This document shows, piece after piece, positions 3,972-55,307 of a stretch of 64,000 bases of DNA. A program made the translations under genes and the position numbers. The notes below the pieces were generated by a model. The model searched no databases. It was not told the origin of the DNA and worked only from the letters and a program-made list of their open reading frames with translations. Numbering within the stretch: position 1 is the stretch's first letter; the number at the start of each line of letters is the position of its first letter. This DNA comes from Candidatus Latescibacterota bacterium (GTDB lineage Bacteria; Latescibacterota; UBA2968), in the NCBI GenBank assembly GCA_965207885.1, contig OZ242311.1:4128001-4192000 (forward strand). The letters run 5' to 3'.

Positions 3972-3990
3972 AATGGACCTTCTAACTTTC

Positions 3991-5004: not shown

Positions 5005-5032
5005 CGATACTCCTCTTTCTGGTGATGATTGA

Positions 5033-5062
5033 GAAAACCCCGCACTTTTGTACGGGGTTTTC
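5033..5062 (-). terminator. Probable intrinsic terminator hairpin
   Basis: GAAAACCCC...GGGGTTTTC inverted repeat between the TPR gene and mdh. Confidence 0.5.
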
Positions 5063-5120
5063 GGGTTTGAATTATTTGTCTAAATACCCACTGTGGTTAG
5101 AACGAAACGCGATTGATCAT

Positions 5121-6302: not shown

Positions 6303-6438
6303 GGGAATCTTCCTTTCTCAACGCAACCGGCGCGTTCCGGCAGCAGGTTAAATGACAATGCACACCGCCAATATATGCAGTGTGTAAAATCCTGTCAAGT
6401 CTCTGCGCGAAGGCGCAAACTGCACGCCGCTATTACCC

Positions 6439-6624
6439 TTATTGTTCCGATAGAAGCGTGCCGCCTCGCGCCCAGTGATCGCGGGAAATATCTTCGATAA
6501 CGACCATCGTCCCATCGGCTTTGGCATCGCAAATATTGACCATCGCATCGGTAATAGCTCTGGCGAGTTCGCGTTTTTGCTCGTGCGTGCGGCCTTCGAG
6601 CATTTTAACATTAATGAAAGGCAT
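6439..6624 (-). CDS. 4-oxalocrotonate tautomerase family protein
   Basis: 61 aa, catalytic Pro-1, GRTHEQK, WARGG; AGGAGG RBS. Confidence 0.9.
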   Translation of the reverse strand: MPFINVKMLEGRTHEQKRELARAITDAMVNICDAKADGTMVVIEDISRDHWARGGTLLSEQ

Positions 6625-29770: not shown

Positions 29771-29980
29771 ATGATTAGAAGTTTCACATTGGATTTTTGG
29801 ATAGACGATGGTTGGTATGTTGGGAAACTACGTGAGGTTCCTGGTGTATTCAGCCAAGGTGCAAACCTGGAAGAATTAAAAATAAACATCAAAGACGCTT
29901 ATGATCTGATGATGGCAGAAACAATGCAGACTCCTGTAGAAAAGTCCGACTCAGTAGAACTGAAAATGGAAATACCTTGA
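29771..29980 (+). CDS. hicB: HicB family antitoxin
   Basis: DDGWYVG...VPGVFSQG..LEEL..NIKDA; GGAGG RBS; overlaps the hicA start. Confidence 0.85.
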   Translation: MIRSFTLDFWIDDGWYVGKLREVPGVFSQGANLEELKINIKDAYDLMMAETMQTPVEKSDSVELKMEIP

Positions 29981-30159
29981 AGCGAAGAGACCTTGTAAAA
30001 GAATTGACTGATGAAGGATGTTACTTGAAAAGGCATGGTGGAAGGCATGACATTTATGCTAATCCCCAGAACAATATGCAAGCACCAATACCAAGGCATC
30101 GAGAAATTAGGGAAAGTTTATGTAAACTGATTAAAAAACAACTGGGTATAGATTCCTAA
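29977..30159 (+). CDS. hicA: HicA family mRNA-interferase toxin
   Basis: MKRRDL...GC...RHGGRHDIY.NP...IPRHREI. Confidence 0.88.
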   Translation: MKRRDLVKELTDEGCYLKRHGGRHDIYANPQNNMQAPIPRHREIRESLCKLIKKQLGIDS

Positions 30160-30207
30160 CAATATACCATAAATGTCGCTATCCAATTTTTTTTATATGA
30201 GAAGGAA

Positions 30208-32983
30208 ATGGCAAATACGCGAGAAGAAGTACTAAACACTGTTGTGGCTTCGATACTGTCCAAATATGACAGTATCGAGGCTGCCCCTGAACAGCGCGAA
30301 GGTCCAGAGGCGATTGATATTACGGTGCGACATGAGAATGCCCGCAATACAGAGGTGGTTATTGAAGCCAAAATTGGAACGTCTGCGGGAAAGAGGAAAG
30401 AAGCCGCCAAACAAGTTCGCCAGCGTTTGGAGAGTCGGCCAAGTGCTATGGCATTTGCGGTGTGTTATCCCAATGATCTCAAGGGGCTTGCCTCCCTGTC
30501 ACAACTGGAAACAGGCATGGCAAATACGCAGCAGCTATGTTTTGCCCATGTGACCCGCGTAGGCAAGGCACCCACATGGCGTGAAGGCTCTGTGCAGGAA
30601 TTTGCCAGCGTTTTATTCCAAAATGATCTTCCACAAAGTAATGTTGCGGATGCGATTGAGTATTCGGTTCGCCAAGCGGCAGACTTTATACAATCCGACA
30701 GAGAACTTTTCAACAAAAACTTTGCACCGTTGCTTGCCAAAGCACTGGCCTTGCCATCCGGAACCGAGAGGGATAACCGCGCTGCGGTGCTGATAGCTGC
30801 GCTGATGGTATCCAATGCCGCTTTGCTGCACCATCGGTTGCGGGTGGTGGATAGCCTTTCAGAAGTGCCAACCTTGAAGGACTGTATGGCAGGGCGATAG
30901 GCTTCTTTCAGCAATGACATCTGCTTGGGAATCCATATTAGAAATTGACTACCATCCCGTATTTGACCCTGCGGTATCGGTATTGGAAGCCTTTATGGAA
31001 GTAAAGAGCAGTGCGCGTATGCTTGCTGTCAATGCTATTCATTTGCTCGTCGAAAATGCCCTTGCACATGCAGATGATTTGGCTGCGCTGCGTTTCGATC
31101 ATGCGGGGCCATTATACCATCGCCTATTGGAATCGGCAAGGTATGATGGATCATTTTACACCAATAATATCTCTGCATTGTTGCTTTCCCGATTGGCTAT
31201 ACAAGAGAATTTTGCCGACTGGTCAGATTTGGACCGTCTGCGCGACCTTAAAGTGATTGACCCTGCCTGTGGAACAGGAACGCTGTTAATGGCCGCCATG
31301 CACACCATCCGTGATAGGTATATCAATGCTTCTGGCCGCGATATTGATTTGCTGCATTTGTGTTTGGTAGAAGATGTGCTTCATGGCCTGGACATCAATA
31401 GGCATGGCATCCAGTTAGCCGCCTGCAACTTGACGCTTGGTAATCCGCGTGTGGATTATACAAAGATGAATCTGCATACGATGCGCCATGGACCCCAACC
31501 TAACGGAGAAGTAAAGATAGGATCAGTGGAACTGCTTGCCACTGCACAGGATGATGGAGAACCAAACCTCACACAGTTTGTTTTACCACTGCCAAGAATG
31601 GAGGCTCTTGGAGCAGAACGCGCTCAGCCCGGCGAATCGTCCGATGATTCTTATATGGAGAAATTTGATGTTGTGATCATGAACCCGCCGTTTACCCGCA
31701 ATGATATACGCAATAGGCAATATACCGCGAGTGATCGTAAGCGTATTCAGGATCGAGAAAAGCAAGTTGTTGACTTTGTTCTGAGGCATAATCCAGAAGC
31801 CGGTGAAGCCATAGATCATACCAATGCGAGAGGCTTTTTTACGCCATTGGCGGATATGTTGTTAAAGGAGAAAACGGGTGTATTGGCTAAAGTTCTTCCG
31901 ACAACAGCTTTGATTGGCGCATCAGGAAAGCAGGAGCGCATGTTTCTTGCGAATCGTTTTCAGATTGAGACCATTATTACCAGCCATGACCCATCGCGTG
32001 TGAATTTCTCTGAGAATACAGCGATCCATGAATCTCTGTTTATTGCGCGTCGGTCTGATGCGGAGAAAAAGCCTACCCGATTTATTTCTTTAGGTCGAAT
32101 GCCTGCGGATGCTCATGAGGCGATGTTGTTGGCAAATATGATTAACGGTGGCAAAATTTCTGGTGAATGGGGCAGGGAATGTGAATGGCCGTGGGAACGG
32201 GTGAGAAACGGTGATTGGCAAGCCGCGTTGTTTTACGATGAGGAACTGGCTGAAGCGTATTACGACCTTGCCGCGCTCAATGGCACGCGACTACAAATTG
32301 TTGGCAACGCCTGTGCCATAGAACCGGAGGGACGACGTGTGCGAGACGCTTTTTCTCGTAATTCAAAGTTAGATACCCCCTGGAAAACACCGGTTCTGTG
32401 GGATCATCAGACAGATGTCCGTACGACGATGGCTACAAAGCCTGATGTGGTAGCAACACCGAAGCGAGGTAGAGAGAAGTATGCACAGAGTTTGGTAAAG
32501 AAAGCCAGCCGATTGGTTATCTCAGGACGGCTTTATACATACGCCGTGCGAACGGCAGCATGTTATACAGAGGAGCCAGTTCTTGGCTCTGCTTGGGTGC
32601 CTGTCACCCCACTATCAAAAACACCTCACTTTGAGCACGCGCTGTGTGCGTGGTGGAACTCGACGCCTGGGATACTGACGATGCTTCATGCCAGGTCCAA
32701 AAAGTTGACATATCCAGCATATTCTTTGGATCTGCTACGCAAGTTGCTCATCCCCAACCCGCGCAATGTCGATGTCTCCCCGCTCATTGATGTTTTCGCT
32801 AAAACCCACCAGCGAGTACTCAAACCTTGGAAAGAGATGGACACCTGTCCTGTACGCGCCCTTATCGACGAAGCAGCAGCACAGGTTCTTCACATAGATG
32901 GGGCAAAGATTGCGGACTGGCGCAAGCGGATCACGCTTGAACCTACCGTCTCTAACCGTCCGGCAGTGGAACGTTTTGGCTAA
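30208..32983 (+). pseudogene. Type IIG/IIL-like fused restriction endonuclease-N6 adenine methyltransferase, split by +1 frameshift at ~30893
   Basis: N-part has a D...IEAK nuclease-like motif; C-part has DPACGTGT (motif I), NPPF (motif IV) and a TRD-like tail. Removing one G from GCAGGGCGA joins the frames (MAGDRLLSAMTSAW). Confidence 0.75.
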
Positions 32984-33064
32984 CTTATTGACAAAAAGTG
33001 GGGCGCCGCACGCCACAGGCATGGCGTAGCCAAAAAACTGGCCAGGCAATTGGAGGATCGAGTT

Positions 33065-33346
33065 ATGGCAGATAATACGACTCGCTGGGATTCAGCAGAG
33101 TACCTCAAAACAGAAGAAGATGTGCGCCTATACCTGGAAGCGTGTCTTGAAGAAGCAGGAGATGACCCCGCCTTTATGGCCCATGCATTAGACGTAATCG
33201 CTCGAGCCAAAAAAAGGATTCTCTTCGAGAGCATCAAACAAGGATTAACAGAGGCGATTGAACACGCGGCAGGCCAGGAAAGTGAGGCGGTTGTGCATTT
33301 CCCACGCACCCCTGATGTAAAATCGAAAAATAAAAAAGCCCGATGA
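33065..33346 (+). CDS. Chimeric antitoxin remnant (HI1420-like antidote N-terminus + N-terminus of an HTH antitoxin), no HTH
   Basis: WDSAEYLKTEED...YLEAC.EE.GDDPAF..ALDVIARAK followed by LFESIKQGLTEAIEHA. Confidence 0.6.
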   Translation: MADNTTRWDSAEYLKTEEDVRLYLEACLEEAGDDPAFMAHALDVIARAKKRILFESIKQGLTEAIEHAAGQESEAVVHFPRTPDVKSKNKKAR

Positions 33347-33366
33347 CCAAATAGGTCCTCGGGCTT
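33332..33366 (-). terminator. Intrinsic terminator downstream of higBA
   Basis: AAGCCCGA-T-GACC...GGTC-C-TCGGGCTT stem with a T-run on the minus strand. Confidence 0.6.
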
Positions 33367-33390
33367 AATAGTTTTGGTTTCATCTATCAG

Positions 33391-33618
33391 CTATATCTCA
33401 GTCAATTCAGGAACATGTTCTTCCTCATATTTCTCAATCAGCACACCAATGACTTCCATCATTGAGGCGAGGGGATGATCTTCATTCTCGCCTACCACAT
33501 CAATCAAATCGTCCAGTATAGCCACAAGCCGTTGATATTCGCTCTCTTCATGGGGGACGAACACAACAGGGGTTAGAACGGGCCATACATCTTGAGCGGT
33601 TTGTATTTCTGCTACCAT
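33391..33618 (-). CDS. HigA-like antitoxin, N-terminal domain only
   Basis: EYQRLVAILDDLIDVVGENEDHPLASMMEVIGVLIEKYE; directly downstream of higB. Confidence 0.7.
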   Translation of the reverse strand: MVAEIQTAQDVWPVLTPVVFVPHEESEYQRLVAILDDLIDVVGENEDHPLASMMEVIGVLIEKYEEEHVPELTEI

Positions 33619-33621
33619 AAT

Positions 33622-33909
33622 CTACTCTTTCCATTTCCCTCTATCATACTCGTCGTGCGTTAGAACCTCACGAATGTAGATTTTCTGTCGGTTGTAATGT
33701 ATTGCCTCGATAAGACGTGCTTTGTTACCACCAATATTGAAAACGGTTAAATTTTTTACCTGATCAGCATGGGGAAACGCCGTATGCAAATCGACAAACG
33801 AACGAAAATAGCCTCGCTTCATTAATCTATACCAATGTTCGAGTGATACTTTGGTATTGGGATGTCTCTGGGCAAACTCGTTCAAGCGTTTTCGGGTGAT
33901 GATATGCAC
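33622..33909 (-). CDS. higB: HigB family toxin
   Basis: HIITRKRL.EF...HP, FPHADQV, VFNIGGNKARLI, VLTHDEYD; GTG start assumed. Confidence 0.85.
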   Translation of the reverse strand: MHIITRKRLNEFAQRHPNTKVSLEHWYRLMKRGYFRSFVDLHTAFPHADQVKNLTVFNIGGNKARLIEAIHYNRQKIYIREVLTHDEYDRGKWKE

Positions 33910-33988
33910 GGAGTGTCCTGCCGACAAGTTGTTCTATTTGCCTGTACCGAAGGCAGATCGGCATACCGACACAAGCAGGATGGTCAAG

Positions 33989-34489
33989 TCAGAGCATCCG
34001 TAGCCTCATGAGGCGGTAGGTCATCGCCAAGGTGCTCACTTTGAACTTCTCAGCAAGCATTTCAAGAACATCGTCTTCGGTTAGATCAAAGGGCTGTTGA
34101 TAGAAGGCTTCCCTGACCCACTCAGCGGGCATAAGGAGTGCAGCGGCAAATGCATTAGCCGCCATCTCTTCATGCTTGGTGCCGGAACCGGACTCAAGGT
34201 CTCGGAAATGTACATGATACCCCTTATCGATGTACGTATCGCCTTTATGAAGAACAAAGTGGCCGATCTCATGCGCGATGCTAAAGCGTTGCCGGTTGGG
34301 GTGGTGTTCTCGGTTGACACCAATAACAGCGCGGTCCCCGTTACGGACAAGTACCCCCGAACAATCTTCTCCGAGGTCTGCCAACTTGATCTTTATGCCT
34401 AGGTGAGCAGCGACTTGCGCCATAGGAACTGGAGCAGTATTCAGTCCCACATCTGCGAGCAACTGCTCAGCTCTTCTCTCCAACGACAT
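33989..34489 (-). CDS. ImmA/IrrE family metallopeptidase (CapP-like, short form)
   Basis: RQRFSIAHEIGH (HExxH), E..ANAFAAALLMP; overlaps the HTH gene. Confidence 0.88.
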   Translation of the reverse strand: MSLERRAEQLLADVGLNTAPVPMAQVAAHLGIKIKLADLGEDCSGVLVRNGDRAVIGVNREHHPNRQRFSIAHEIGHFVLHKGDTYIDKGYHVHFRDLESGSGTKHEEMAANAFAAALLMPAEWVREAFYQQPFDLTEDDVLEMLAEKFKVSTLAMTYRLMRLRML

Positions 34490-34844
34490 TATGACTTTCC
34501 TCTACATTACTAGCGATAAAGGAAGTAACTTGCGCTTGGCTTTTTCCTGCCTCCTCCTTCAACCAACCTGTGATTTTAGGCCTTGCGGTCCCAGCTTCGC
34601 TTTTTGGGAATTCATCTCGCGAGGGCAAAAGCAAGCGCATGTCAACATCAAGCGCATCGGCAAGTGCCCAGAGGGTGTGAAGCGTCGGTCGCTGATTTCC
34701 GCTCTCAATATTGGCAATTGATCCTCGAGCAAGGCCACAACGCTGCGCAAGTTGGGTTTGTGTGAGCCCCGCTTCGCGTCGCTTTCGTTCCACCTTCTGC
34801 CCTACGAGTTGGTAGAGCCTCTCTGAGTCAGGTCGCCGTCGCAT
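34467..34844 (-). CDS. XRE HTH repressor (CapH-like)
   Basis: GLTQTQLAQRCGLARGSIANIESGNQRP; divergent from the CBASS operon. Confidence 0.85.
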   Translation of the reverse strand: MRRRPDSERLYQLVGQKVERKRREAGLTQTQLAQRCGLARGSIANIESGNQRPTLHTLWALADALDVDMRLLLPSRDEFPKSEAGTARPKITGWLKEEAGKSQAQVTSFIASNVEESHNVVGEKS

Positions 34845-34982
34845 ATATACTTTAGATAGGATCTTGAGTATAAAATGTCAAGCAATAAAAAGCAAACAAG
34901 AGAATCTATATACTTATTAAATGGAATAACAGTGAAAAAGTTTTTAATACAAAGCAGAATTATAATATATACCTTTTATTCA

Positions 34983-35011
34983 TTGACAAAAATATAAGCT
35001 TATACTATACT
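34983..35011 (+). promoter_or_regulatory. Near-consensus sigma70 promoter of the CBASS operon with a 12-bp palindrome in the spacer
   Basis: TTGACA(34983-88)-N17-TATACT(35006-11); TATAAGCTTATA at 34993-35004. Confidence 0.7.
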
Positions 35012-35216
35012 ATGATCACCGATGCCCAAAGTCTTGCCGTGGGCGGTTGAAGGCAGTTCCGCCACCCGCTTCAGGTATATGGAGACAGGGTCTGTTACGC
35101 AAATCTATTATCTTCAAAGCTGGCGGATGAGACATAAAGAGGATCCCACTCCTCGAAGGGGAAAAACGCCTTCAAGGAGGTGTTAATCTATATATACATA
35201 TTGGAGGCCCTACGTC

Positions 35217-36164
35217 GTGGAATATACAAACCAACAACTCAACAACTATGTCAAACGGATTAAGCTCACTCAAGAAAAAAAATCGTCTTATAAGAGCCAA
35301 ATTGATAATCTGAGGGACAATGTTCGCAAGGCCATAAGCGATATGGAAAACACTAAATTAACAAAGGTCAAAATCGCAGGATCGTGGAGGAAAGGCACTG
35401 CCTTAGCACCAAAAGGAGAATATCCCCTCGATATAGACCTGGTATTCTACTTGGCCCTCGAAGAAGATATTTCCTTTGATGCCGAGGAGCTTCGGGAGGA
35501 GATCATTGACGTATTATGTGAGGCATACCCTACCAAGGAGAGATCAGACTTTACTGATGGGAAAAAAACCATCGGCATTGTGTTCAGAGGGTCTGGCCTT
35601 GAGGTTGATATTGTGCCGTTTATACCAGAAAAAGGTAATACGACTTATGGAAGACAACCAGAAAAAAAACTCAATTCAGGTGAGTTCAAAACCAGCGTCG
35701 ATAAGCAATTGGATTTTACAAAAAAAATAAAATCCAAGTGTTCTAATTTCACTTCCATTGTGCGCATTCTGAAAAGTTGGAAAAATTATAAAGAACTGGA
35801 ACTTTCCTCTTTTTCTCTTGAATTGGCAGTAGCTAAATTGATTGAGGAGGGGAGAATATCTGGTGCTTCAATAAACCAATCAATTATCAATTTTTTCGAG
35901 TTTTTCGGTAATGGTAATCCTGTCGAAGTGTATTTTTCAGGTGCGATTGGACCGCAAACGGGCAATGCACCCTGGATAGCAGATCCAACGAATAATGAGA
36001 ACAATTCGATCAGATTATCTGATAGTGAATGGGATGAAGTCATAGAAGAGGCAGAATGCGGCTTTGAAACTATTTCCTATGCACAAACCGTGCAAGAGAC
36101 TGGAAAAACATTAGACTTATGGAAAGAAGTTTTTGGACCAAGTTTCAATATTAAGGAGGTGTAA
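35217..36164 (+). CDS. CBASS CD-NTase (CdnC-like oligonucleotide cyclase)
   Basis: GSWRKGT-x-DID-x-VDIVP nucleotidyltransferase motifs, SF.LEL, IADP.N, WKEVFGPSF end; GGAGG RBS, GTG start. Confidence 0.88.
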   Translation: MEYTNQQLNNYVKRIKLTQEKKSSYKSQIDNLRDNVRKAISDMENTKLTKVKIAGSWRKGTALAPKGEYPLDIDLVFYLALEEDISFDAEELREEIIDVLCEAYPTKERSDFTDGKKTIGIVFRGSGLEVDIVPFIPEKGNTTYGRQPEKKLNSGEFKTSVDKQLDFTKKIKSKCSNFTSIVRILKSWKNYKELELSSFSLELAVAKLIEEGRISGASINQSIINFFEFFGNGNPVEVYFSGAIGPQTGNAPWIADPTNNENNSIRLSDSEWDEVIEEAECGFETISYAQTVQETGKTLDLWKEVFGPSFNIKEV

Positions 36165-36169
36165 TACCA

Positions 36170-36652
36170 ATGAGCACTATGACACAAACATATACCAGAA
36201 CAGATATCCGTAAAGTTTTTGAAAACTTCCAGGCAGATCTACAAATGCTTGCTGTAAGAACGCGGGCAATGGAATTAGATCATGCACAAGACTGTGCCCA
36301 TGATGTCTGTTTAATGGCTAGAGAAGAGTGCTTGACGCGCGTCCATATACAATTGTATGACTCTTTTGGAAGTCTGGTAAAAGTCCACCGGTATTCCGTG
36401 GAAGAAGATATATTATCAGATTCGCAAAGGCCAGGAGACAATAGATGGCCATGCTTACCTGACGGCACACTACGTGTGATTGTTGAATACTCTGATATAC
36501 AAAAATCGGAAGATCTCAAAAAATCAGGTAAGTTAAAAATTCCTTGGGGTCCCTCATCCTTATCAACCGATTACTCTGGAATGCACAGTAATGGCGGCAG
36601 ACTCTATTCCAGTAATAGCTATGGATTACAGCGCGAAACATTCGTGAACTAA
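36170..36652 (+). CDS. Bacterial HORMA-domain protein (Cap7-like)
   Basis: 160 aa, TQTYT.TD...F.ADL start and YSSNSYGLQR end; sits between CD-NTase and TRIP13. Confidence 0.8.
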   Translation: MSTMTQTYTRTDIRKVFENFQADLQMLAVRTRAMELDHAQDCAHDVCLMAREECLTRVHIQLYDSFGSLVKVHRYSVEEDILSDSQRPGDNRWPCLPDGTLRVIVEYSDIQKSEDLKKSGKLKIPWGPSSLSTDYSGMHSNGGRLYSSNSYGLQRETFVN

Positions 36653-36664
36653 ACAGGACAAGAA

Positions 36665-37555
36665 ATGGCACAAGATACGTTTGATACTCAACGAGAACTC
36701 CCATCAAGTGATCTAAAAAATATTGCTGAAACACTTGTCGGCTTCGAGCGGCATTATGAAGCGTTGAAAAACCATCTAACGATAATGTTAATGCCTGATC
36801 ATATAGATAAGTGGAGCAAGCAATACCACAAACAAATTCTTCCATTATGCGAGGTAATCCGACAAAGATATCCACTTTTTCTTTTTAGCGGAGATGTCGG
36901 AACAGGAAAAACCGTTACGGCTGAGTGTGCTGCTGACCGGCTGACAAGAGAAATGAGCAAAGAAGGATTTCTGCTCAAGTTGAGTACCCGCGTGAGAGGT
37001 AAGGGTTTGCATGGAGAAATGAGTCAGCTTATCCAAGACGCTTTTGAAAATTTGACAACTCAAGCAGGCAAAAAACGTCTGTCCTTTCTATTGATAGACG
37101 AGGCAGATTCCATAGCATCTCTTCGATCCACCGAACAGATGCACCAGGAAGAAAAGGCGGCTGTCAACACGCTGATACAGAAAATTGATGAAATTCGCCA
37201 AGTAGGTGGTCGAGCGGTTGTATTTCTGTGTACTAATAGATCAAATGTCATTGATCAAGCTATCGTTAGGCGTGCTGCATTACATATAGAATTTTCTCGA
37301 CCAAATAAAGAAGAATGTATAGAATTACTGACAAATGATCTGCAAGGAGTAGGATTGACATCGCAAGAGCTAAATGAATTAGCATCCTTGATCTCAGGGA
37401 ATGGACAGAAAAAAGAAAATGGTTATTCATTTTCAGATTTTCGGTTGCGATTCCTTCCAGAGGCTCTTGCTCGGGCCTTTCCAGATCAGGCACTAACATT
37501 TGATATTCTAAGAGAAACAGCTTTGGCCGTGAAACCAAGCCCTCGGATTGTCTAA
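36665..37555 (+). CDS. TRIP13/Pch2-like AAA+ ATPase (Cap6-like)
   Basis: GDVGTGKT Walker A, RVRG.G..GEMS, LLIDEADS Walker B, CTNR, DQAIVRR. Confidence 0.88.
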   Translation: MAQDTFDTQRELPSSDLKNIAETLVGFERHYEALKNHLTIMLMPDHIDKWSKQYHKQILPLCEVIRQRYPLFLFSGDVGTGKTVTAECAADRLTREMSKEGFLLKLSTRVRGKGLHGEMSQLIQDAFENLTTQAGKKRLSFLLIDEADSIASLRSTEQMHQEEKAAVNTLIQKIDEIRQVGGRAVVFLCTNRSNVIDQAIVRRAALHIEFSRPNKEECIELLTNDLQGVGLTSQELNELASLISGNGQKKENGYSFSDFRLRFLPEALARAFPDQALTFDILRETALAVKPSPRIV

Positions 37556-37556
37556 A

Positions 37557-38105
37557 ATGCAAAACAACGATGTTCAATTAAATCAGAAATTGCTCAAAAA
37601 ATTGAGTAAAAAAGCGGACTTTTGCCGATTTTCTCATTCGGAGCTAAAAGAAAAATATACCACCTGTCGAAATTGGAAAGAATTTTCTGTTGTGTTATTG
37701 TCGGTAGTTTCCGCCGCGCTAATCGGTTTTTACTATCGAGGAATATTGGAAGGTGATTGGACATTGTCGCTTATTTTTTGTTTACCTTTTACCATAATGA
37801 TAGTACAGGCACTGGATCACACTGTGTTTCAGTGGACACAGAAAGCAGCACGGCACGAGTCCGCAGTAGCAATTTGGGGGGATTGGATCAGAGAGGCAGA
37901 CTTTCTTGAGCAGCATATCCTTCAGTATTCAAGTGATTTAGTCGATGAAAAGATGCACAACATACAGGAAAAATACAGAAATTGTATGGGTAGTACAGAA
38001 CAAGTACCCAATAGCAAATTCCTAAAATACAAAAAGAAATTCAAAATACAGGTATTGGAATCTAAAAAAATGGATGACATGTCTTTGGAAGATCTAAAAA
38101 AATAA
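37557..38105 (+). CDS. Putative CBASS effector, SLATT-like two-TM protein
   Basis: Two hydrophobic helices (FSVVLLSVVSAALIGFYY; WTLSLIFCLPFTIMIVQAL), then KAARHE..V..W helical tail; last gene of the AT-rich operon. Alternative TTG start at 37548. Confidence 0.65.
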   Translation: MQNNDVQLNQKLLKKLSKKADFCRFSHSELKEKYTTCRNWKEFSVVLLSVVSAALIGFYYRGILEGDWTLSLIFCLPFTIMIVQALDHTVFQWTQKAARHESAVAIWGDWIREADFLEQHILQYSSDLVDEKMHNIQEKYRNCMGSTEQVPNSKFLKYKKKFKIQVLESKKMDDMSLEDLKK

Positions 38106-38120
38106 AATAACGTTTCAGAT

Positions 38121-38669
38121 ATGGCTATCCCAAATCCTCTCATTAAATTTACTTACGATGACTACCTGAATACGCCCGAAGACAAGCGTTATGAACTTCT
38201 GGACGGGGATTTAGTTGCGCTCTCTTCACCGGAAGAATTTCATCAACGTGTTTCCATCCTATTAGGGACGAAATTGGTTCAGTTCGCAGTTGAAAATCGC
38301 CTGGGGAGGGTCTATCACACGCCCTTCGACGTGGTGCTGTCGGATATGGACGTGGTGCAGCCCGATCTGATCTTCGTCTCCAATGAACGCGCCGATATCA
38401 TCACCCCTGCGAATATTCAGGGCGCGCCGGACCTCGTCGTCGAAATCCTATCTCCTTCCACAGCCGCACGCGATAAGACCATCAAGCGCAGTCTATATGC
38501 CAGGCACGGCATAACCGAGTACTGGATGGTCGATCTAACCGAAAAAACCATAACGGTTCTGCGTCTCGGCGAGCGCGGATTCGAGGTTGTCGATACCTAC
38601 GGCGAAGGGGAAATATTGACTTCGCCCACATTGCAAGGATTCACTTTGAGCCTCGGCGACATATTTTAA
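38121..38669 (+). CDS. Uma2 family endonuclease-like protein
   Basis: RYELLDG, VVQPDL, GAPDLVVEILSPST...D...K..LY, EYWMVD. Confidence 0.88.
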   Translation: MAIPNPLIKFTYDDYLNTPEDKRYELLDGDLVALSSPEEFHQRVSILLGTKLVQFAVENRLGRVYHTPFDVVLSDMDVVQPDLIFVSNERADIITPANIQGAPDLVVEILSPSTAARDKTIKRSLYARHGITEYWMVDLTEKTITVLRLGERGFEVVDTYGEGEILTSPTLQGFTLSLGDIF

Positions 38670-38806
38670 GACAGCCTTGACAACATTAAAAAGTTCGGCT
38701 ATTTTGCAATCCCACTGCAAAATAGCCGCTTTTTTCTACCCCAAATGTATATTACCCGCACTCTTGAATCCTTTGTCGCATCTTCTCAATTTCCCTTCTC
38801 ATCTTA

Positions 38807-39766
38807 ATGATACCCGACCTCTTACCCCTAAAACCCTACCTCCGCGAAACCGTCTGGGGAGGGCGCAGCCTGGGGACACACTACAACAAAGCACTTCCCC
38901 CGGATGTACCCATTGGCGAATCGTGGGAAGTCTCGGCATACAAAGGGATGGAAAGCATTGTCGCAGACGGTCCCCTTGCCGGACAAAACCTCGCCGACCT
39001 CGTCGCAATTTACGGCGCAGACCTCCTCGGACAGCGCGTTATCCAGCGTTATGGCACTGAATTCCCATTGCTCATCAAATTCCTCGATGCACGCGACGAC
39101 CTCTCCATCCAGGTACACCCCGACGACACCTATACCCGTACAGAAAACCTGGGCACCTATGGCAAAACAGAAGCGTGGTACATACTCAAATCAGACCAGG
39201 GGCGCGTGGCTTGTGGCCTGAAAGACGGCGTAGATAAACACAGCTTGAAATTATCCATCCGCGAAAACCGCGTACAGGACACCGTGCAATTCTTCGATGT
39301 ACAGGAAGGCGATGTAATCTTTGTACCGCCCGGCACAGTACACGCCCTGTGCCAGAACGTCATGATCTACGAAGTACAACAATCCAGCGACCTCACCTTT
39401 CGCATCTACGACTACAACCGCCCCGGCACCGACGGCAAGCCGCGCGAACTGCACATTGACCGCGCCCTCGACGTCATCGCCTTTGACGCACCCGCGCCAG
39501 AACCGCGGAACTCACGTCACGAGGCAAACGCCACACTCATCGGAGCAGAAGACACCGAATACTTCCGTCTCGAACGCTTCGCCCCTGCTGGCATCGTCCA
39601 GCACGCCTATCCCACATTTGCGGCACTCACCGTCCTCGCCGGTCAAGCCCAATTAAACAAAACCTTCACCGCTCAAACAGGCGATACCTTCTTCATCCCG
39701 GCCAATCGCACCGTCACCGTCTCACCAGAAGAAAACGTGGAATATTTAATCTCATCCTGTGGGTAG
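38807..39766 (+). CDS. manA: Mannose-6-phosphate isomerase, class I
   Basis: VWGG, GESW, FPLLIKFLDA..LSIQVHP, GKTEAW, GTVHA, EVQQSSD.T.RIYD. Confidence 0.88.
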   Translation: MIPDLLPLKPYLRETVWGGRSLGTHYNKALPPDVPIGESWEVSAYKGMESIVADGPLAGQNLADLVAIYGADLLGQRVIQRYGTEFPLLIKFLDARDDLSIQVHPDDTYTRTENLGTYGKTEAWYILKSDQGRVACGLKDGVDKHSLKLSIRENRVQDTVQFFDVQEGDVIFVPPGTVHALCQNVMIYEVQQSSDLTFRIYDYNRPGTDGKPRELHIDRALDVIAFDAPAPEPRNSRHEANATLIGAEDTEYFRLERFAPAGIVQHAYPTFAALTVLAGQAQLNKTFTAQTGDTFFIPANRTVTVSPEENVEYLISSCG

Positions 39767-40048: not shown

Positions 40049-41246
40049 CATGGTACACGACAAAACTTAAATTGTTTTAAACAGTGGCGGATTACTCAGT
40101 AAACGAATGCATATGAGGAACTGTTGGGTTTGTTGGTTTATATTGAGCAGGACATACTGCAAATAGTCCAACCCATATCGGAAGAGACTTTTCTCCATCC
40201 GCCCGTGATTTTTGATCGTCAAAGGATTTGTTTTTGCTATCCATTCGCCGATGATATGCGCCCAGATGCAGGCAATGGCCAAAAGCGCGATGAGTTTCTC
40301 AATGCGGTCTTGATGTATAAGATGGGTCTCTTCCAGATTAAATCCTCGACTTTTAAGATTGGCAAAAAGGACTTCAATGCCCCATCGTTTTTTATAGGTA
40401 TCCAATGCGGCTTGACCTTTTTGGTTGCTGGCAAGAATGAGGTATTGGTCCTTCAATCTTAGTGCAGACAGATATACAGGCAGGTCATAAACGCGGTGGC
40501 GTTTGCACAAGTTGACCTGCTGATGGATATTAAGATTTTCAAACCGTTTTCTTATGGGGATCTCTCTACCGCCTGATGAGACAAGAGCGTTTTCCTTGAT
40601 GCGAATAACAAAGGGTATATTTTGTGTGTCTAACCACCTAAACCATTCTCTTCCAATAAATTCTCTGTCTGCGACGACAACGCGGATATGCGATTTGCAG
40701 ATGCAGTTGAGCATTTCTTGCATCAAATGGATACGCTCATCACTATTGGAATTGCCCCGTTTTTTTAACAAGTGCCAACAGATAGGAAAGGCGACCCCTT
40801 CATAGATAATGCCTGCGGTTAGGATGTTGATATTGAATTTTCCCAACTTCCAATTGGTGCGATCTATTGAGACTATAAAATCCGACTTTATAGGTAATAA
40901 GTGCAAGATCAATTGTCTCACACACGCATAGGGTAAGGCAAAGTGGGCAAAGAAGCGTTGGATACGACGATAATTAGATTTCTGCTTGACGGTTCCATTG
41001 AGTGCGTTTGCCAGTTTCATAAAATTGACGCTACGCAATTTTATCAGCGACAATATGAACGCAGCGGTAAACGTTATTCGGGCTTTATGCCAGTGAAAAT
41101 ATCCTTGCATAATCGTTTGAAGTTCAATAGTTTCAGGAGACATAGACCTGTGCCTTGTTAAGATGAGAAAGGTTTGTCTTGGGACATTCAAACCTAACTC
41201 TTTTTAGCTTTTTTCACAGGTCTTTTATTTTTTGTCGTGTACTATG
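40049..41246 (-). mobile_element. IS4-family (ISAba1/IS10-like) insertion sequence, 1198 bp
   Basis: TIRs CATGGTACACGACAAAA (40049-65) and reverse complement CATAGTACACGACAAAA (41230-46), 16/17 identical; 9-bp TSD AAAAATTGG at 40040-48 and 41247-55. Confidence 0.93.
40067..41143 (-). CDS. IS4-family DDE transposase
   Basis: YRRIQRFF, IDRTNWK, ADREF, Y..RW.IE..F..LKSRGF; single uninterrupted ORF. Confidence 0.92.
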   Translation of the reverse strand: MSPETIELQTIMQGYFHWHKARITFTAAFILSLIKLRSVNFMKLANALNGTVKQKSNYRRIQRFFAHFALPYACVRQLILHLLPIKSDFIVSIDRTNWKLGKFNINILTAGIIYEGVAFPICWHLLKKRGNSNSDERIHLMQEMLNCICKSHIRVVVADREFIGREWFRWLDTQNIPFVIRIKENALVSSGGREIPIRKRFENLNIHQQVNLCKRHRVYDLPVYLSALRLKDQYLILASNQKGQAALDTYKKRWGIEVLFANLKSRGFNLEETHLIHQDRIEKLIALLAIACIWAHIIGEWIAKTNPLTIKNHGRMEKSLFRYGLDYLQYVLLNINQQTQQFLICIRLLSNPPLFKTI

Positions 41247-41347
41247 AAAAATTGGGAAAGAAACTGGAGAAAAGTCACATCTGATATTTGCAAATATAGC
41301 GAAAAAAAAGAAATGCACAACCGGATCGGCGAAGGTCGGTCCAGTTT

Positions 41348-42940
41348 TTATGAAAGAATATGCTCTTTGATATATTCTTTCAGGGCAGATAACGTATTTG
41401 CATCCCCCGGCAAGAGCGGGAGGCCACCGATTCCATAAGACAGACTGGTATAAAAAGCGTGGGTCTGGTACGCGGAATCCACCTGAGCGGGAAACAGGAC
41501 AACGGCACTTTTGAGAATGCGTTGAAAATCTGTATCTATCACCTGCCCAATAGCGTCCCGATAAGCGTGCATCTTATCAATATCTTCGCGCATGGGAATC
41601 CACGTCCCATTGTAATCTTCGCGGCGATATTTAGCGTCAAATGCATAAATAGCGCGTTCCCCTTTCGAGTTGTTGATCTCGATAATCATATCGGGCCTCA
41701 GATCATGGGTGAGCGCGCGTCCCGACGAGGTAGTATAAGTCATATTGTAGAGACAACGAATGCGGCGCTCACCGCGCTGAAGATATATCGCAGAGGATTC
41801 GCCCTGCGCGGGAGAAACGCTCAAACCGCGGTTGGTCAGGTGAAAAAGGTTATCATCGCGGATCGGAACAAAGCCGATATCGCACAAAGTGTGAACGAGC
41901 GTAAAATAGACCCAGTATTCGTAAAGCGCGTGTGTATCGCGAAAGGACAGATCAAATGGGCCACCCGTACAGGGCGCGAGCGCGCAGTTGAGATCTCGGA
42001 TAAGCGCAAAAGCCGTCTGGTAACGCACATCGACATGAACGGGCAAAGCGTCATCGCGTCGCGCAGGTGGCAAAGGGAGCAAACGCAAGCAGCGATCCAC
42101 GTATATTTTCAGGCGATGTCCCAAATCGGTATGTGCAATAGATCTCGCGCGCAGTGACAGACGCTTTAAGCGTGCAACGAGATGGCGATTGAGCGATGTA
42201 TCAATATCGGAATGGCGATGGGTCTCGCGCAAATGCGTACAGACGACATCGTCCGCTATAGGCAAATGCGGGAGATCAGTCTCGCTATGCGTCCAGAATT
42301 GTGGCGAGCGAATCATATCGACAATCGCATCGGGGTCGCGGCCCTGTGCGCGATCAACCGCGCGGATGTGTTGAACGGTTTTGAGATGGCGATGCGGACG
42401 TTTGAGTATCGCATGCAAAGTGCGGACGAGTTGATTCAAAAGACGATCCAGCACTTGATGAAAATCTAAATTGCTACCCTTATCATCTGTCAGACGCGTT
42501 GAGATACGAGTTTGATCGGGCAAAAGGTAAACGAGTTCGCGGCTGATGCGCTCGAGATCGGCGCGCATGATTTGATAATCGGTTTCGTAGTCGAGATGCG
42601 AGGGACGCACATCGAGTTCGGCATAGAGCAGATCGACATTATCTGAGCGAATACAAAAACGGATATGCCCCGGATGATCGCCCGTAGCGAGCCGCCCCCA
42701 CAGCGCGTGCCCGTCGCGGAGAAAACCAAGGGTCTCGACGGGTTGATCGTCGATATAGACCGAAATATCTTTCTCATTGAGCGGACGAATGAGGCAGTTG
42801 CATTCAGTAGCTTCAACCAGATGATCAGCAATTACATTACCTTGCACGGGAGAGAGCAAAATGCGGGCATAATCATTTTCCGCAACAAGACCATCGGATG
42901 TTTTCGAAAAGGAAGCGCGGATGTGTTGACCTGAGTCCAT
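41348..42940 (-). CDS. DUF2357 / PD-(D/E)xK nuclease (McrC-like)
   Basis: LDYETDY, LYEYW, LRPD...FDAKYR, DIDKMHAYRDAI. Confidence 0.8.
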   Translation of the reverse strand: MDSGQHIRASFSKTSDGLVAENDYARILLSPVQGNVIADHLVEATECNCLIRPLNEKDISVYIDDQPVETLGFLRDGHALWGRLATGDHPGHIRFCIRSDNVDLLYAELDVRPSHLDYETDYQIMRADLERISRELVYLLPDQTRISTRLTDDKGSNLDFHQVLDRLLNQLVRTLHAILKRPHRHLKTVQHIRAVDRAQGRDPDAIVDMIRSPQFWTHSETDLPHLPIADDVVCTHLRETHRHSDIDTSLNRHLVARLKRLSLRARSIAHTDLGHRLKIYVDRCLRLLPLPPARRDDALPVHVDVRYQTAFALIRDLNCALAPCTGGPFDLSFRDTHALYEYWVYFTLVHTLCDIGFVPIRDDNLFHLTNRGLSVSPAQGESSAIYLQRGERRIRCLYNMTYTTSSGRALTHDLRPDMIIEINNSKGERAIYAFDAKYRREDYNGTWIPMREDIDKMHAYRDAIGQVIDTDFQRILKSAVVLFPAQVDSAYQTHAFYTSLSYGIGGLPLLPGDANTLSALKEYIKEHILS

Positions 42941-43019
42941 TGTTCGCGTAGATTTCAAAAGGGTTTGTCTTCAACCATTTTACGGAGGTCGCCTGCAGTA
43001 GTAAATATAAGGAGGAGTT

Positions 43020-52815: not shown

Positions 52816-53123
52816 ATGTGTGAATTGATCCAGACAATGATACTCGTAAGGATAAACGCAGGCGTCTATTGAGTGCGCCTGTGTGACGGCGGAGGGCCTG
52901 TATTGGGTTGGCAAACCTGTGGCCCTCCCGCCGCAGAATACATACAGAGACAGTTACGGTTTGGTAGTCGTAACTTGCTCTATTTGAAAATGTAAAGTTT
53001 TACAACCACTAAATCAAGTTGCATTTCTATCCAGAAGAGAGGGTAGAAGATGCCACACAAATCCTGTTGATTTTTCTCGCAGTCAGTCAAGCAGGGCTTG
53101 ATTTTTCACATAAAGGAGGAGGT

Positions 53124-55307
53124 ATGAGACGTTACTATTTGCAATCCGGGTTATGGATGGGTGTGATAGCAGTGCTGATTTTAGGAGGCCTGTACGTTGC
53201 GGCCGACCTCAATGCGACCGATAGGCCCTCAAATGCCTTAAATAGCGAAGACGGATTCTGGAGTGGTCCTGGCTTTGCGTCAGGTAAGATGTCAGGTCGA
53301 AGCACAAAAATTGCACTTGGTCCCAATGCCAATGCCACAGTGTCGATAGATCTGATTGCGGATGGTGGGGCAGGTAATCAGATGGACGACGGCGTTACAT
53401 CGGGAACCGTGTCTGGACAGGGCACAAAAATTGCCGTTGAGGTTTTCGCCAGGGGCGTGACCACATCGCTGATTGGTGTGCAGATTACATTTGATTTTAA
53501 AGCTGAAGAGTTAAAGCTCGATAAGGTCGAGAATAGTGCGTTTCTGTTTGCTATTCCAGAACCGACGGGCGTAAGTTTTGCAGCGACCGCGCCTGTTACA
53601 CTGCCGGCGTCCGGTTTTATTGGACGCGCTGAGTTTTCTACTGTCGCGGATGTTACAGGTCAGGAGTTTACGCTTGGCATTAAGGCGGTTACGCTTGCTG
53701 AAAGCGCGGCGTCAAGCGATGTTGTCACAACAACAGATGTAATCTCGTTTAATGCTACCTCTTCCCCCGACTTTGACGGCGATGGGACGGTTGGCTTTTC
53801 CGACTTTTTGCAATTTGCAGGCCAGTACGGGGCACGTCAAGGTGATGGGCAGTACGAAGCAAGGTATGATCTGGATAGCGATGGCGCGATCTCATTTAGC
53901 GATTTTCTGGCTTTTGCGAGTAGTTATGGCACACAGGTTTCACCCTCTGGTAGCGGCGGTGGTGGCGGTGGTGGCAGTACGGGGATAGTTGACATTCCAG
54001 ATGCAAACCTTCGTGCGGTGATCGCAGACAGTCTGGGCAAGTCGAGTGGTGCATCGATTACCCGGGCAGAGATGGCGACCTTGACAAGCATTCGTGCGCC
54101 CAATAAGGGCATTCGCAATCTGACAGGGCTTGAGCATGCAACCAATTTGCAAGAGCTGCGGCTTGGTTATGTGCAGGTGAATAATAGGCCGGTCAACAGC
54201 AACGATATCTCTAATCTCTCGCCTCTTTCCAACTTGACAAACCTGGAAAGGCTGTCTCTTGACTTTAACAGCATCTCTGATATATCCGCGCTGTCCAACT
54301 TGACAAACCTGGAAAGGCTGTATCTTTGGAACAACAGTATCTCCGATATATCCGCGCTGTCCAACTTGACCAATCTGACATACCTCGATCTTGACAACAA
54401 CAGCATCTCTGATATATCCGCGCTGTCCAACTTGACAAACCTGGAAAGGCTGTCTCTTAGCAACAACAGTATCTCTGATATATCCGCGCTGTCCAACTTG
54501 ACAAACCTGGAAGTGATGTCTCTTAGCAACAACAGTATCTCTGATATATCCGCGCTGTCCAACTTGACAAACCTGGAAGTGATGTCTCTTCGCAACAACA
54601 GTATCTCTGATATATCCGCGCTGTCCAACTTGACAAACCTGGAAATTCTGTATCTTTGGAACAACAGTATCTCTGATATATCCGCGCTGTCCAACTTGAC
54701 AAACCTGGAAATTCTGTATCTTTGGAACAACAGTATCTCTGATATATCCGCGCTGTCCAACTTGACAAACCTGGAAGTGATGTCTCTTCGCAACAACAGT
54801 ATCTCTGATATATCCGCGCTGTCCAACTTGACAAACCTGGAAGTGATGTCTCTTAGCTCCAACAGTATCTCGTCTATATCCGCGCTGTCCAACTTGACAA
54901 ACCTGGAAATTCTGTATCTTACCTCCAACAGTATCTCTGATATTTCGCCATTAGTGGCAAATACGGGATTGGGCAGTGGTGACGAAGTTTATTTGAAAAG
55001 CAATCCGTTGAGCAGTACATCCATCAATACGCACATTCCAACCCTTCAGCGCAGAGGCGTTACAGTAGAATTTGACAGTAGCGGTGGAAGTAGCCAAACA
55101 TGCACTGTAGGATTGACACTGAATCCAGGAGACGGATGCAGTGGTTCTACTTACAGTCTTCAAAACGATTCCGGTGTTTTGGTCTTGGATGGTAATATTG
55201 GTGGCCTCAGGATGGGCAATACGCGCATTTCTGGGAACAATGTCAACTTGAACGGACTAATTTTGACCAGAAGTGGCAATGTCTGGACCATTGTTAGCCT
55301 ACCCTAA
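53124..55307 (+). CDS. Exported cohesin-like + dockerin-like EF-hand + internalin-like LRR protein
   Basis: AGGAGG RBS and signal sequence; beta-sandwich; DFDGDGTVGFSDFL / YDLDSDGAISFSDFL; IPDANLR cap, 22-aa LRRs, NPLS cap. Confidence 0.85.
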   Translation: MRRYYLQSGLWMGVIAVLILGGLYVAADLNATDRPSNALNSEDGFWSGPGFASGKMSGRSTKIALGPNANATVSIDLIADGGAGNQMDDGVTSGTVSGQGTKIAVEVFARGVTTSLIGVQITFDFKAEELKLDKVENSAFLFAIPEPTGVSFAATAPVTLPASGFIGRAEFSTVADVTGQEFTLGIKAVTLAESAASSDVVTTTDVISFNATSSPDFDGDGTVGFSDFLQFAGQYGARQGDGQYEARYDLDSDGAISFSDFLAFASSYGTQVSPSGSGGGGGGGSTGIVDIPDANLRAVIADSLGKSSGASITRAEMATLTSIRAPNKGIRNLTGLEHATNLQELRLGYVQVNNRPVNSNDISNLSPLSNLTNLERLSLDFNSISDISALSNLTNLERLYLWNNSISDISALSNLTNLTYLDLDNNSISDISALSNLTNLERLSLSNNSISDISALSNLTNLEVMSLSNNSISDISALSNLTNLEVMSLRNNSISDISALSNLTNLEILYLWNNSISDISALSNLTNLEILYLWNNSISDISALSNLTNLEVMSLRNNSISDISALSNLTNLEVMSLSSNSISSISALSNLTNLEILYLTSNSISDISPLVANTGLGSGDEVYLKSNPLSSTSINTHIPTLQRRGVTVEFDSSGGSSQTCTVGLTLNPGDGCSGSTYSLQNDSGVLVLDGNIGGLRMGNTRISGNNVNLNGLILTRSGNVWTIVSLP
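54200..54950 (+). repeat. 66-bp in-frame tandem repeat (11 LRR units plus a partial unit)
   Basis: Constant AACAGTATCTCTGATATATCCGCGCTGTCCAACTTGACAAACCTG plus a variable segment. Confidence 0.9.

Follow-up and report, generated by a model that had tools for sequence, protein, structure and literature searches.

A type III CBASS cassette with a predicted SLATT_4-like membrane effector in a Candidatus Latescibacterota genome

A six-gene anti-phage module in a Candidatus Latescibacterota bacterium probably uses a small SLATT_4-like protein with two transmembrane (TM) segments as a membrane-breaching effector gated by the nucleotide product of its cyclase. The module is a one-HORMA (type III) anti-phage signaling system based on cyclic oligonucleotides (CBASS), and lies in a 64,000-nucleotide stretch of contig OZ242311.1 (assembly GCA_965207885.1, forward-strand positions 4,128,001 to 4,192,000), hereafter the window, whose own numbering is used throughout. 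By every sequence feature tested, the locus is a type III CBASS; the type classification used for this assignment is reportedly that of Millman et al. (2020).

A type III CBASS core followed by a small membrane protein

The core of the cassette consists of four open reading frames (ORFs) on the forward strand between positions 35217 and 38105, in the order cyclase, HORMA, TRIP13, and small membrane protein. The first, cdnC (35217-36164), has a GTG start preceded by GGAGG and encodes a 315-aa cGAS/DncV-like nucleotidyltransferase (CD-NTase), the CBASS oligonucleotide cyclase; it is followed by cap7 (36170-36652), encoding a single bacterial HORMA protein of 160 aa, by cap6 (36665-37555), encoding a TRIP13/Pch2-like AAA+ ATPase of 296 aa, and by the gene for the SLATT_4-like two-TM (2TM) protein of 182 aa (37557-38105), which was assigned as the effector from profile matches, hydropathy, and synteny. 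Only 5, 12, and 1 nt separate the four genes. The G+C content of the cassette is 0.399, compared with 0.505 and 0.492 in its flanks, and in a 1-kb profile it is 0.40 to 0.41 at 35-38 kb versus 0.47 to 0.56 nearby. A first-pass annotation, made from the sequence alone, had delimited the same four tightly packed, AT-rich ORFs, and its boundaries were exact. The intact type III core that it described was borne out by profiles and motifs, but its operon did not include a divergent regulator pair encoded upstream on the reverse strand. This pair comprises capH (34467-34844), encoding an HTH_3 repressor and divergent from cdnC (Pfam HTH_3 1.3e-16, PADLOC capH 2.9e-10), and capP (33989-34489), encoding an M78/IrrE-like zinc metallopeptidase regulator with a HEIGH motif (Pfam Peptidase_M78 4.1e-24, PADLOC capP 2.9e-38); the two genes overlap by 23 nt. 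When PADLOC models were run on the locus, those for the cyclase, HORMA, TRIP13, Effector 2TM, capH, and capP were all matched.

The cyclase matched PADLOC PDLC00808 (2.4e-77), NCBIfam CBASS_cyclase_a (253 bits, cut-off 200), and Pfam SMODS (2.9e-11). Its closest solved relative is CdnC of Escherichia coli MS115-1 (6p80, 3.9e-20); the next matches, at about 3e-7, are cyclic AMP-AMP-GMP synthases. The active site is intact (G55-S56, D72-I-D74, and D131), and its motifs are kept in all 22 full-length homologs. The HORMA protein was identified by Pfam bacHORMA_1 (1e-28; 100.8 bits, cut-off 35.6) and PADLOC HORMA (2.2e-38), and a PDB sequence search with it gave no relative. The ATPase matched PADLOC TRIP13 (8.6e-106) and the bacterial Pch2 structures 6pb3 (4.9e-50) and 6p8v (5.1e-48); its Walker A (GDVGTGKT, residues 76-83) and Walker B (LLIDEAD, residues 142-148) motifs are kept in 25 of 25 TRIP13 homologs. 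The GS, DxD, and third Asp of the CD-NTase and the Walker motifs of TRIP13 had previously been read as intact, and this holds for both window proteins.

For the effector, the ORF could start at a TTG at 37548, giving 185 aa, or at an ATG at 37557, giving 182 aa. We set the start at 37557 because public homologs are about 182 aa long and because this ATG stands one base past the TRIP13 stop codon (TAA, 37553-37555). With this spacing, the effector would be translationally coupled to cap6.

Kyte-Doolittle hydropathy places two hydrophobic segments in the effector, at about residues 43-61 and 68-88, with an acidic loop of 7 residues between them, and the two peaks recur in most of 35 relatives, one of which has a deletion. 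The N-terminal 42 residues have a net charge of +5, and the C-terminal 94 to 95 or so contain many charged residues of both signs; the protein is predicted to form a hairpin with both termini in the cytoplasm (N-in/C-in). Crude propensities indicate that the composition of the C-terminal 95 residues favors helix. Of the earlier description, two TM helices with a short helical tail, the two hydrophobic segments stand, but a tail of about 95 residues is not short. This tail and the N-terminal 42 residues are the best conserved parts of the protein, with conservation of 0.76 to 0.82 in the cytoplasmic helices versus 0.65 to 0.71 in the TM segments. The positions kept throughout the wider superfamily described below are K19, A20, R24, H27, S49, H100, R112, Y140, P-I-P, F155, L156, K159, K165, S169, and D173, and all except S49 are cytoplasmic. 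Several of them are basic or aromatic, as a surface that binds a nucleotide would need. In agreement with the first-pass annotation, Pfam, PADLOC, and NCBIfam recognized no NucC, SAVED, CARF, or STING domain in the four core proteins, nor any further sensor or nuclease domain, and the conserved neighbors of the cassette are regulators only; the profile libraries likewise gave no sequence match to a Cap15-type beta-barrel nucleotide-binding domain in these proteins.

The effector is probably a divergent relative of SLATT_4 and SLATT_5 proteins

The effector matched two PADLOC CBASS "Effector 2TM" models, PDLC00681 (2.8e-14) and PDLC00684 (5.2e-10), and gave a full-length alignment with the NCBIfam SLATT_4 profile (E = 1e-7, model positions 2-152 of 154). 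The same NCBIfam model matched 35 of 35 close-family sequences including the window protein, at best with 3.7e-11. When 1.84 billion representative proteins were searched with a profile built from the close effector family, 99 matched at E ≤ 1e-3, including 36 at E ≤ 1e-10. Almost all of these matches have lengths of 170-230 aa; the sole long match, of 553 aa, is weak and split into multiple stretches. No fused, longer form of the effector was found, none of 847 candidates of 320-2000 aa being significant. A tblastn search of a plasmid collection with the window effector gave no match.

The window effector was then aligned with 86 of the 99 profile matches; left out of this 87-sequence set were three close-set or fragment sequences, nine other fragments shorter than 165 aa, and the weak 553-aa match. 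PDLC00684 (best 7.8e-87) and PDLC00681 each match all 87 members. Among them, the NCBIfam models SLATT_4, SLATT_5, and SLATT_1 match 79, 35, and 13, respectively, and the Pfam models SLATT_5 and SLATT_4 match 23 and 9. Membership of the window protein among the SLATT proteins rests on transitive homology, because its direct SLATT_4 score lies under the curated cut-off and Pfam SLATT models do not match it. Such homology suggests that it is a divergent member of the SLATT_4/5 superfamily and of the catalogued CBASS 2TM effector class. The label "SLATT-like" given to the fourth gene at first reading is supported by the PADLOC 2TM models, by the SLATT_4 alignment, and by kinship with SLATT_4/5 proteins through intermediates.

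The cassette is conserved as a unit and appears to spread horizontally

The close effector family comprises 119 protein clusters with 48-100% identity. A pattern scan, with one genome per species, provided 24 related loci (L001 to L024), all from metagenome-assembled genomes of Latescibacterota, Binatia, Nitrospirales, Arenicellales and other Gammaproteobacteria, Opitutales, Bdellovibrionales, and Oligoflexia. TRIP13 and HORMA genes are directly upstream of the effector gene in 24/24 loci, and a cyclase gene is present in 23; the missing one, in L010, is cut by the contig end. The cyclase of L013 is partly cut, and that of L018 is split by an insertion. The first-pass annotation had envisaged that the TM gene might lack conservation beside homologous cyclases, and its constant position behind TRIP13 and HORMA does not bear this out. 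Of the core genes, the effector gene is the least conserved, with 48-83% identity versus 66-93% for TRIP13, and its ratio of nonsynonymous to synonymous substitution rates (dN/dS) is 0.24-0.44 versus 0.08-0.18 for cyclase and TRIP13; it is under purifying selection, yet evolving faster.

The window is syntenic with the Latescibacterota metagenome-assembled genome that carries L001, with 92% identity over 33074-38103 and synteny that continues on both sides, except that the IS4-like transposase at 40067-41191 is absent from L001. On a wider scale, the cassette occurs in at least six phyla with 66-93% protein identity, its tree is at odds with host taxonomy, and its G+C content is 0.05 to 0.17 under that of the flanks in most hosts, although it follows the host in the low-G+C Bdellovibrionales. 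A tree that crosses host phyla and a G+C content below that of the flanks indicate horizontal spread, and point to repeated transfer of the cassette.

One Bdellovibrionales chromosome, OZ241967.1, contains two near-identical whole cassettes (L015 and L022) about 0.8 Mb apart, with branch lengths of 0.016 and 0.009.

Two alternative regulators accompany the cassette

All ORFs of at least 80 aa from the 24 loci and the window region were clustered to find shared neighbors. Beyond the four core genes, the only clusters common to more than three loci were a WYL regulator, CapH, CapP, and shadow ORFs. CapH and CapP occur together in five of the 24 loci (L001, L005, L009, L011, and L014), upstream and on the opposite strand as in the window. 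A WYL gene of about 245-280 aa was found by tblastn in the other 19 (L002-L004, L006-L008, L010, L012, L013, and L015-L024), directly after the effector gene on the same strand, about 100-140 nt past it. It is absent from the window (38106-38800), where the best chance tblastn match had E = 1.5. The WYL protein matched Pfam WYL (1.4e-10) and the structures 7qfz (3.8e-44), CapW 9c5g (6.4e-21), 7tb5, 7tb6, and BrxR 7t8k. We had considered this conserved fifth gene as a hidden effector such as NucC, a candidate that was rejected once it was identified as a CapW/BrxR-family WYL regulator. Its downstream, same-strand position is unusual, CapW genes in print being described as upstream and divergent.

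In total, 19 cassettes have only the WYL regulator, five and the window cassette have only CapH/CapP, and none has both or neither. In a tree of concatenated cyclase and TRIP13 sequences with 22 rows, from which L010, L013, and L018 were omitted for their incomplete cyclase, the cassettes with CapH/CapP group in a single clade supported at 96/96, so that a single regulator swap suffices to explain their distribution. The capH/capP arrangement of the window agrees with the layout published for E. coli MS115-1 (bioRxiv 10.1101/2022.04.27.489752), and the same preprint describes CapH/CapP as accompanying type I-III CBASS with 1TM, 2TM, and 4TM effectors.

Candidate regulatory elements were located between capH and cdnC. 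The motif AATA(A/C)AAAGCA is matched only twice in the 64-kb window, where 0.10 matches were expected; two were reached in 0 of 100 shuffles. Both matches fall in the capH-cdnC intergenic region, between the two divergent promoters, at a distance of 62 nt from each other. These copies, AATAAAAAGCA at 34884-34894 and AATACAAAGCA at 34946-34956 on the forward strand, are conserved in CapH/CapP loci and make up a candidate CapH operator. A TTGACA on the reverse strand (34877-34882), invariant in the six aligned CapH/CapP intergenic regions, is the putative -35 box of the capH promoter, and capH appears to be almost leaderless. For the CBASS genes, a candidate sigma-70-like promoter, TTGACA-17 nt-TATACT, lies at 34983-35011 on the forward strand; it is proposed from an 11/12 match to the consensus, and its -35 box is invariant in the six loci. 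The long leader that follows (35012-35216) showed no conservation beyond the nearest relative in the aligned CapH/CapP loci. No Rfam match was found in 33800-38900, and the window contains no tRNA. A TATATAC repeat in the intergenic region had also been considered as an operator; it was dropped, being absent from four of the five other CapH/CapP loci (L001 keeps one copy).

The neighborhood of the 24 loci bears on whether the 2TM protein could be an accessory membrane factor, like the uncharacterized 3-TM protein Cap19 of E. coli upec-117 CBASS, with the true effector encoded elsewhere or missing. For protection, the upec-117 type III system has been reported to require a transmembrane protein as well as a distinct enzymatic effector (PMC9122588), and the same could be imagined here; however, the 24 loci show no other conserved non-regulatory gene with the cassette, PADLOC effector models match 87/87 members of the superfamily, and a homolog is likewise the sole effector candidate in type IV CBASS operons of Bacillus. 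We regard an accessory role as unlikely, and favor the 2TM protein itself as the effector.

A proposed route from cyclase to membrane

By analogy with E. coli MS115-1, CapH would repress the divergent promoters until CapP cleaves it after DNA damage, which would raise expression of the cassette, as reported for this pair (bioRxiv 10.1101/2022.04.27.489752). The HORMA protein, if it behaves like its counterparts in CdnC-HORMA-TRIP13 systems, would close round a phage-derived peptide and then bind and activate the CD-NTase, and in uninfected cells TRIP13 would pull the HORMA-cyclase complex apart (control mechanism in bioRxiv 10.1101/694695). The activated cyclase would make a cyclic oligonucleotide; our best guess is a cyclic trinucleotide, given that CdnC is the closest relative with a solved structure. 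In the least certain step, the conserved cytoplasmic helices of the SLATT_4-like hairpin in the inner membrane would themselves receive the nucleotide, with K19, R24, H27, H100, R112, Y140, F155, and K159 as candidate receiving residues. The nucleotide-bound effector would then oligomerize, breach the membrane, and abort the infection; SLATT proteins have been predicted to be nucleotide-responsive and pore-forming (PMC7159879).

More tentatively, and as a possibility that we would at present rather doubt than assert, the divergent SLATT_4-like family may be the membrane receptor-effector for the product, possibly a cyclic trinucleotide, of a CdnC-type, HORMA-controlled cyclase. Its binding site would have no dedicated sensor fold and would be built from the N-terminal helix (K19, R24, and H27) together with motifs after the TM segments and in the C-terminal part (H100, R112, Y140, P-I-P, and F155-L-K-x-K159), perhaps between protomers. 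If this were true, a nucleotide-binding mode would be defined for a SLATT effector for the first time, and type III CBASS signaling would have its first membrane effector.

Several observations weigh against a nucleotide-gated SLATT effector in this cassette. The nucleotide product, ligand binding, and oligomerization are all inferred. The SLATT_4 score of the window effector is 32 bits, under the curated cut-off of 55, and Pfam SLATT models match neither it nor 34 close relatives at E ≤ 1. Neither sequence nor profile searches of the PDB reached a solved relative of the effector, the best E values being 0.051 and 0.39. The effector start has no clear Shine-Dalgarno sequence, and its translation seems to depend on the coupling to cap6. 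Among the 24 related cassettes, three are broken, with different lesions in each. Finally, the close effector family was seen only with HORMA and TRIP13 (24/24 loci), and contacts specific to the proteins of this cassette are possible.

The last point leads to the option that what gates the 2TM protein is not a diffusible nucleotide but direct contact, either with the CD-NTase/HORMA complex, as also raised in the first-pass annotation, or with TRIP13. The translational coupling to cap6, and the failure to recognize a nucleotide-sensor fold in the four proteins, are compatible with such gating as well. The option is disfavored because the effector superfamily also serves type IV CBASS, in which HORMA and TRIP13 are absent. 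The distant effector relatives on Bacillus plasmids are the 2TM proteins (PDLC00684, 1.7e-102) of operons that also encode QueC (1.1e-81), TGT (1.8e-129), and a cyclase of another family (PDLC00790, 1.3e-137); a CD-NTase, with its product, is the only partner that the type III and type IV settings have in common. There are also SLATT effectors that work with TIR signal producers. We consider direct gating to be improbable. A related cyclase-HORMA-TRIP13 set on an Acinetobacter plasmid is accompanied by a phosphorylase-type effector and an exonuclease. Effectors and sensor modules thus appear to have been swapped independently of each other, as would be expected if the nucleotide, rather than a specific protein contact, links them.

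The broken cassettes show that such cassettes do decay. In L018, cdnC is interrupted by an insertion of about 1.5 kb (2150-4605); L019 has a HORMA frameshift near codon 120 (4614-5092) and an effector stop at codon 40 (6001-6456); in L024 the effector gene is interrupted by an IS3-like element with an rve integrase (4461-6309). The window cassette might likewise be a silent or decaying remnant of a horizontal acquisition, and its low G+C content relative to the flanks and its location among mobile and toxin-antitoxin genes are in keeping with this. All six of its ORFs are nevertheless intact with their catalytic motifs, dN/dS versus the closest relative is 0.09-0.44, and the promoter elements are conserved, all of which make a remnant very unlikely.

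Comparison with known systems

The type III CBASS of E. coli MS115-1 is alike in having divergent capH/capP followed by cyclase, one HORMA, and TRIP13, and the catalytic aspartates of its CdnC have the same numbering as those of the window cyclase (D72/D74). It differs in its effector, the nuclease NucC activated by cyclic tri-adenylate (cAAA), where the window has the 182-aa 2TM protein; its CdnC is only moderately similar to the window cyclase (75.8 bits), and the window HORMA is too diverged for a PDB match. Among plasmid-borne cyclases, the closest to that of the window is encoded in a type III CBASS on the Hymenobacter tibetensis plasmid NZ_CP094671.1. This operon shares with the window a PDLC00808 cyclase (37% identity), one HORMA, TRIP13, and a 2TM effector in fourth position, but that effector is 269 aa long, belongs to 2TM class PDLC00675 (also matching RTasNUDIX), and is not SLATT_4-like.

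The type IV CBASS 2TM effectors on the Bacillus plasmids NZ_CP136373.1 and NZ_CP094456.1 are homologous to the window effector, having been retrieved by its family profile, and have in common with it the motif Y..P.IP...FLK.K and, in the N-terminal helix, K/R/H. They differ in their partners, QueC, TGT, and the PDLC00790 cyclase, and have only about 20-25% identity to the window effector. The CBASS SLATT4 and SLATT6 effectors are also small membrane proteins encoded beside a CD-NTase, with no separate sensor domain; those that have been tested (e.g., EcCdnF04-SLATT6) belong to type I systems with clade F cyclases and lack HORMA and TRIP13. ThsH, the SLATT effector of type VII Thoeris, can be likened to the window protein by its description, as it is standalone and is proposed to bind nucleotide in positively charged pockets between protomers; its signal is cyclic ADP-ribose from a TIR protein, and the evidence for it is an AlphaFold 3 model with genetics, in a preprint.

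Cap15, S-2TM-beta, and Panoptes OptE proteins resemble the window effector in their two-TM hairpin with a cytoplasmic nucleotide-receiving part, which is only proposed for the window effector, and these proteins are reported to oligomerize and collapse the inner membrane; they have a dedicated beta-barrel nucleotide-binding domain, whereas none was found by sequence in the window effector. The Panoptes effector is negatively regulated by c-di-AMP (PMC12657230, PMC12657218), and an inverted logic could be conceived for the window cassette, with the nucleotide holding the membrane protein inactive and nucleotide loss triggering death. That effector, however, is an S-2TM-beta/Cap15 homolog paired with a constitutive mCpol, whereas the window cyclase has the HORMA/TRIP13 on-off switch of an inducible system. 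Inverted signaling is highly improbable here, and activation of the effector by the nucleotide is preferred.

The first-pass annotation had called the pairing of cyclase and effector poorly described, which is true in part. In the literature searched we found no study of a SLATT effector in a HORMA/TRIP13 operon, although Millman 2020, Burroughs 2015, or the supplements of the CapH/CapP paper may cover the pairing. Table S1 of 10.1101/2022.04.27.489752 may already list type III (one-HORMA) systems with 2TM and CapH/CapP. A demonstrated ligand, binding site, or oligomeric structure for a CBASS SLATT effector was not found there either. In the usual description of type III CBASS, cAAA activates a nuclease (PMC13276650), and in the preprint by Ye et al. 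the effectors given for HORMA operons are nucleases, proteases, and phospholipases, transmembrane proteins not being mentioned (bioRxiv 10.1101/694695). On the other side, the idea of a TM effector that binds the messenger itself is not new, PADLOC models already match the protein, and the Hymenobacter operon is a type III system with a 2TM effector.

What is already known includes SLATT as an effector associated with SMODS nucleotidyltransferases, the abundance of SLATT4 and SLATT6, phage restriction by type I SLATT6, the PADLOC models, and plasmid type III operons with TM effectors. Type I SLATT6 operons are reported to restrict phages more than 10,000-fold (bioRxiv 10.1101/2023.05.21.541620), and membrane effectors reportedly outnumber all other classes of CBASS effectors, SLATT4 and SLATT6 being listed among the most abundant classes (PMC12480259). 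The present cassette is a fairly ordinary but sound find, an incremental advance rather than a new principle. It is compact and highly conserved, and exists in two versions that differ in the regulator only, which would make it a convenient model for asking how a hairpin protein of about 180 residues reads a nucleotide, and whether HORMA-controlled cyclases also drive membrane killing.

Neighboring genes

A gene for a putative endonuclease of the Uma2 family (38121-38669, forward strand; Pfam 8.2e-37, PADLOC candidate PDC-S03 7.1e-40) starts 15 nt past the effector stop and is followed by a strong bidirectional terminator-like hairpin (38696-38728). It accompanies the cassette in L001 only, where it is about 530 nt away, and is probably a separate neighbor, not part of the CBASS.

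Defense and mobile genes surround the cassette on both sides (29977-33927 and 40067-42958). Upstream, they encode a HicA toxin (29977-30159), a 689-aa N6-adenine methylase of the Eco57I/MmeI type with a 230-aa partner of unknown function (30208-32983), and a HigB toxin with a small partner, also matching PD-Lambda-2_A (33391-33927). Downstream are the IS4-like DDE transposase (40067-41191) and a protein with DUF2357 and a PD-(D/E)XK nuclease (41348-42958). Further along the window, and unrelated to the CBASS cassette, are genes for a 762-aa leucine-rich-repeat protein (53019-55307) and for a 743-aa protein that joins a patatin-like phospholipase to an Omp85-type barrel (61266-63497).

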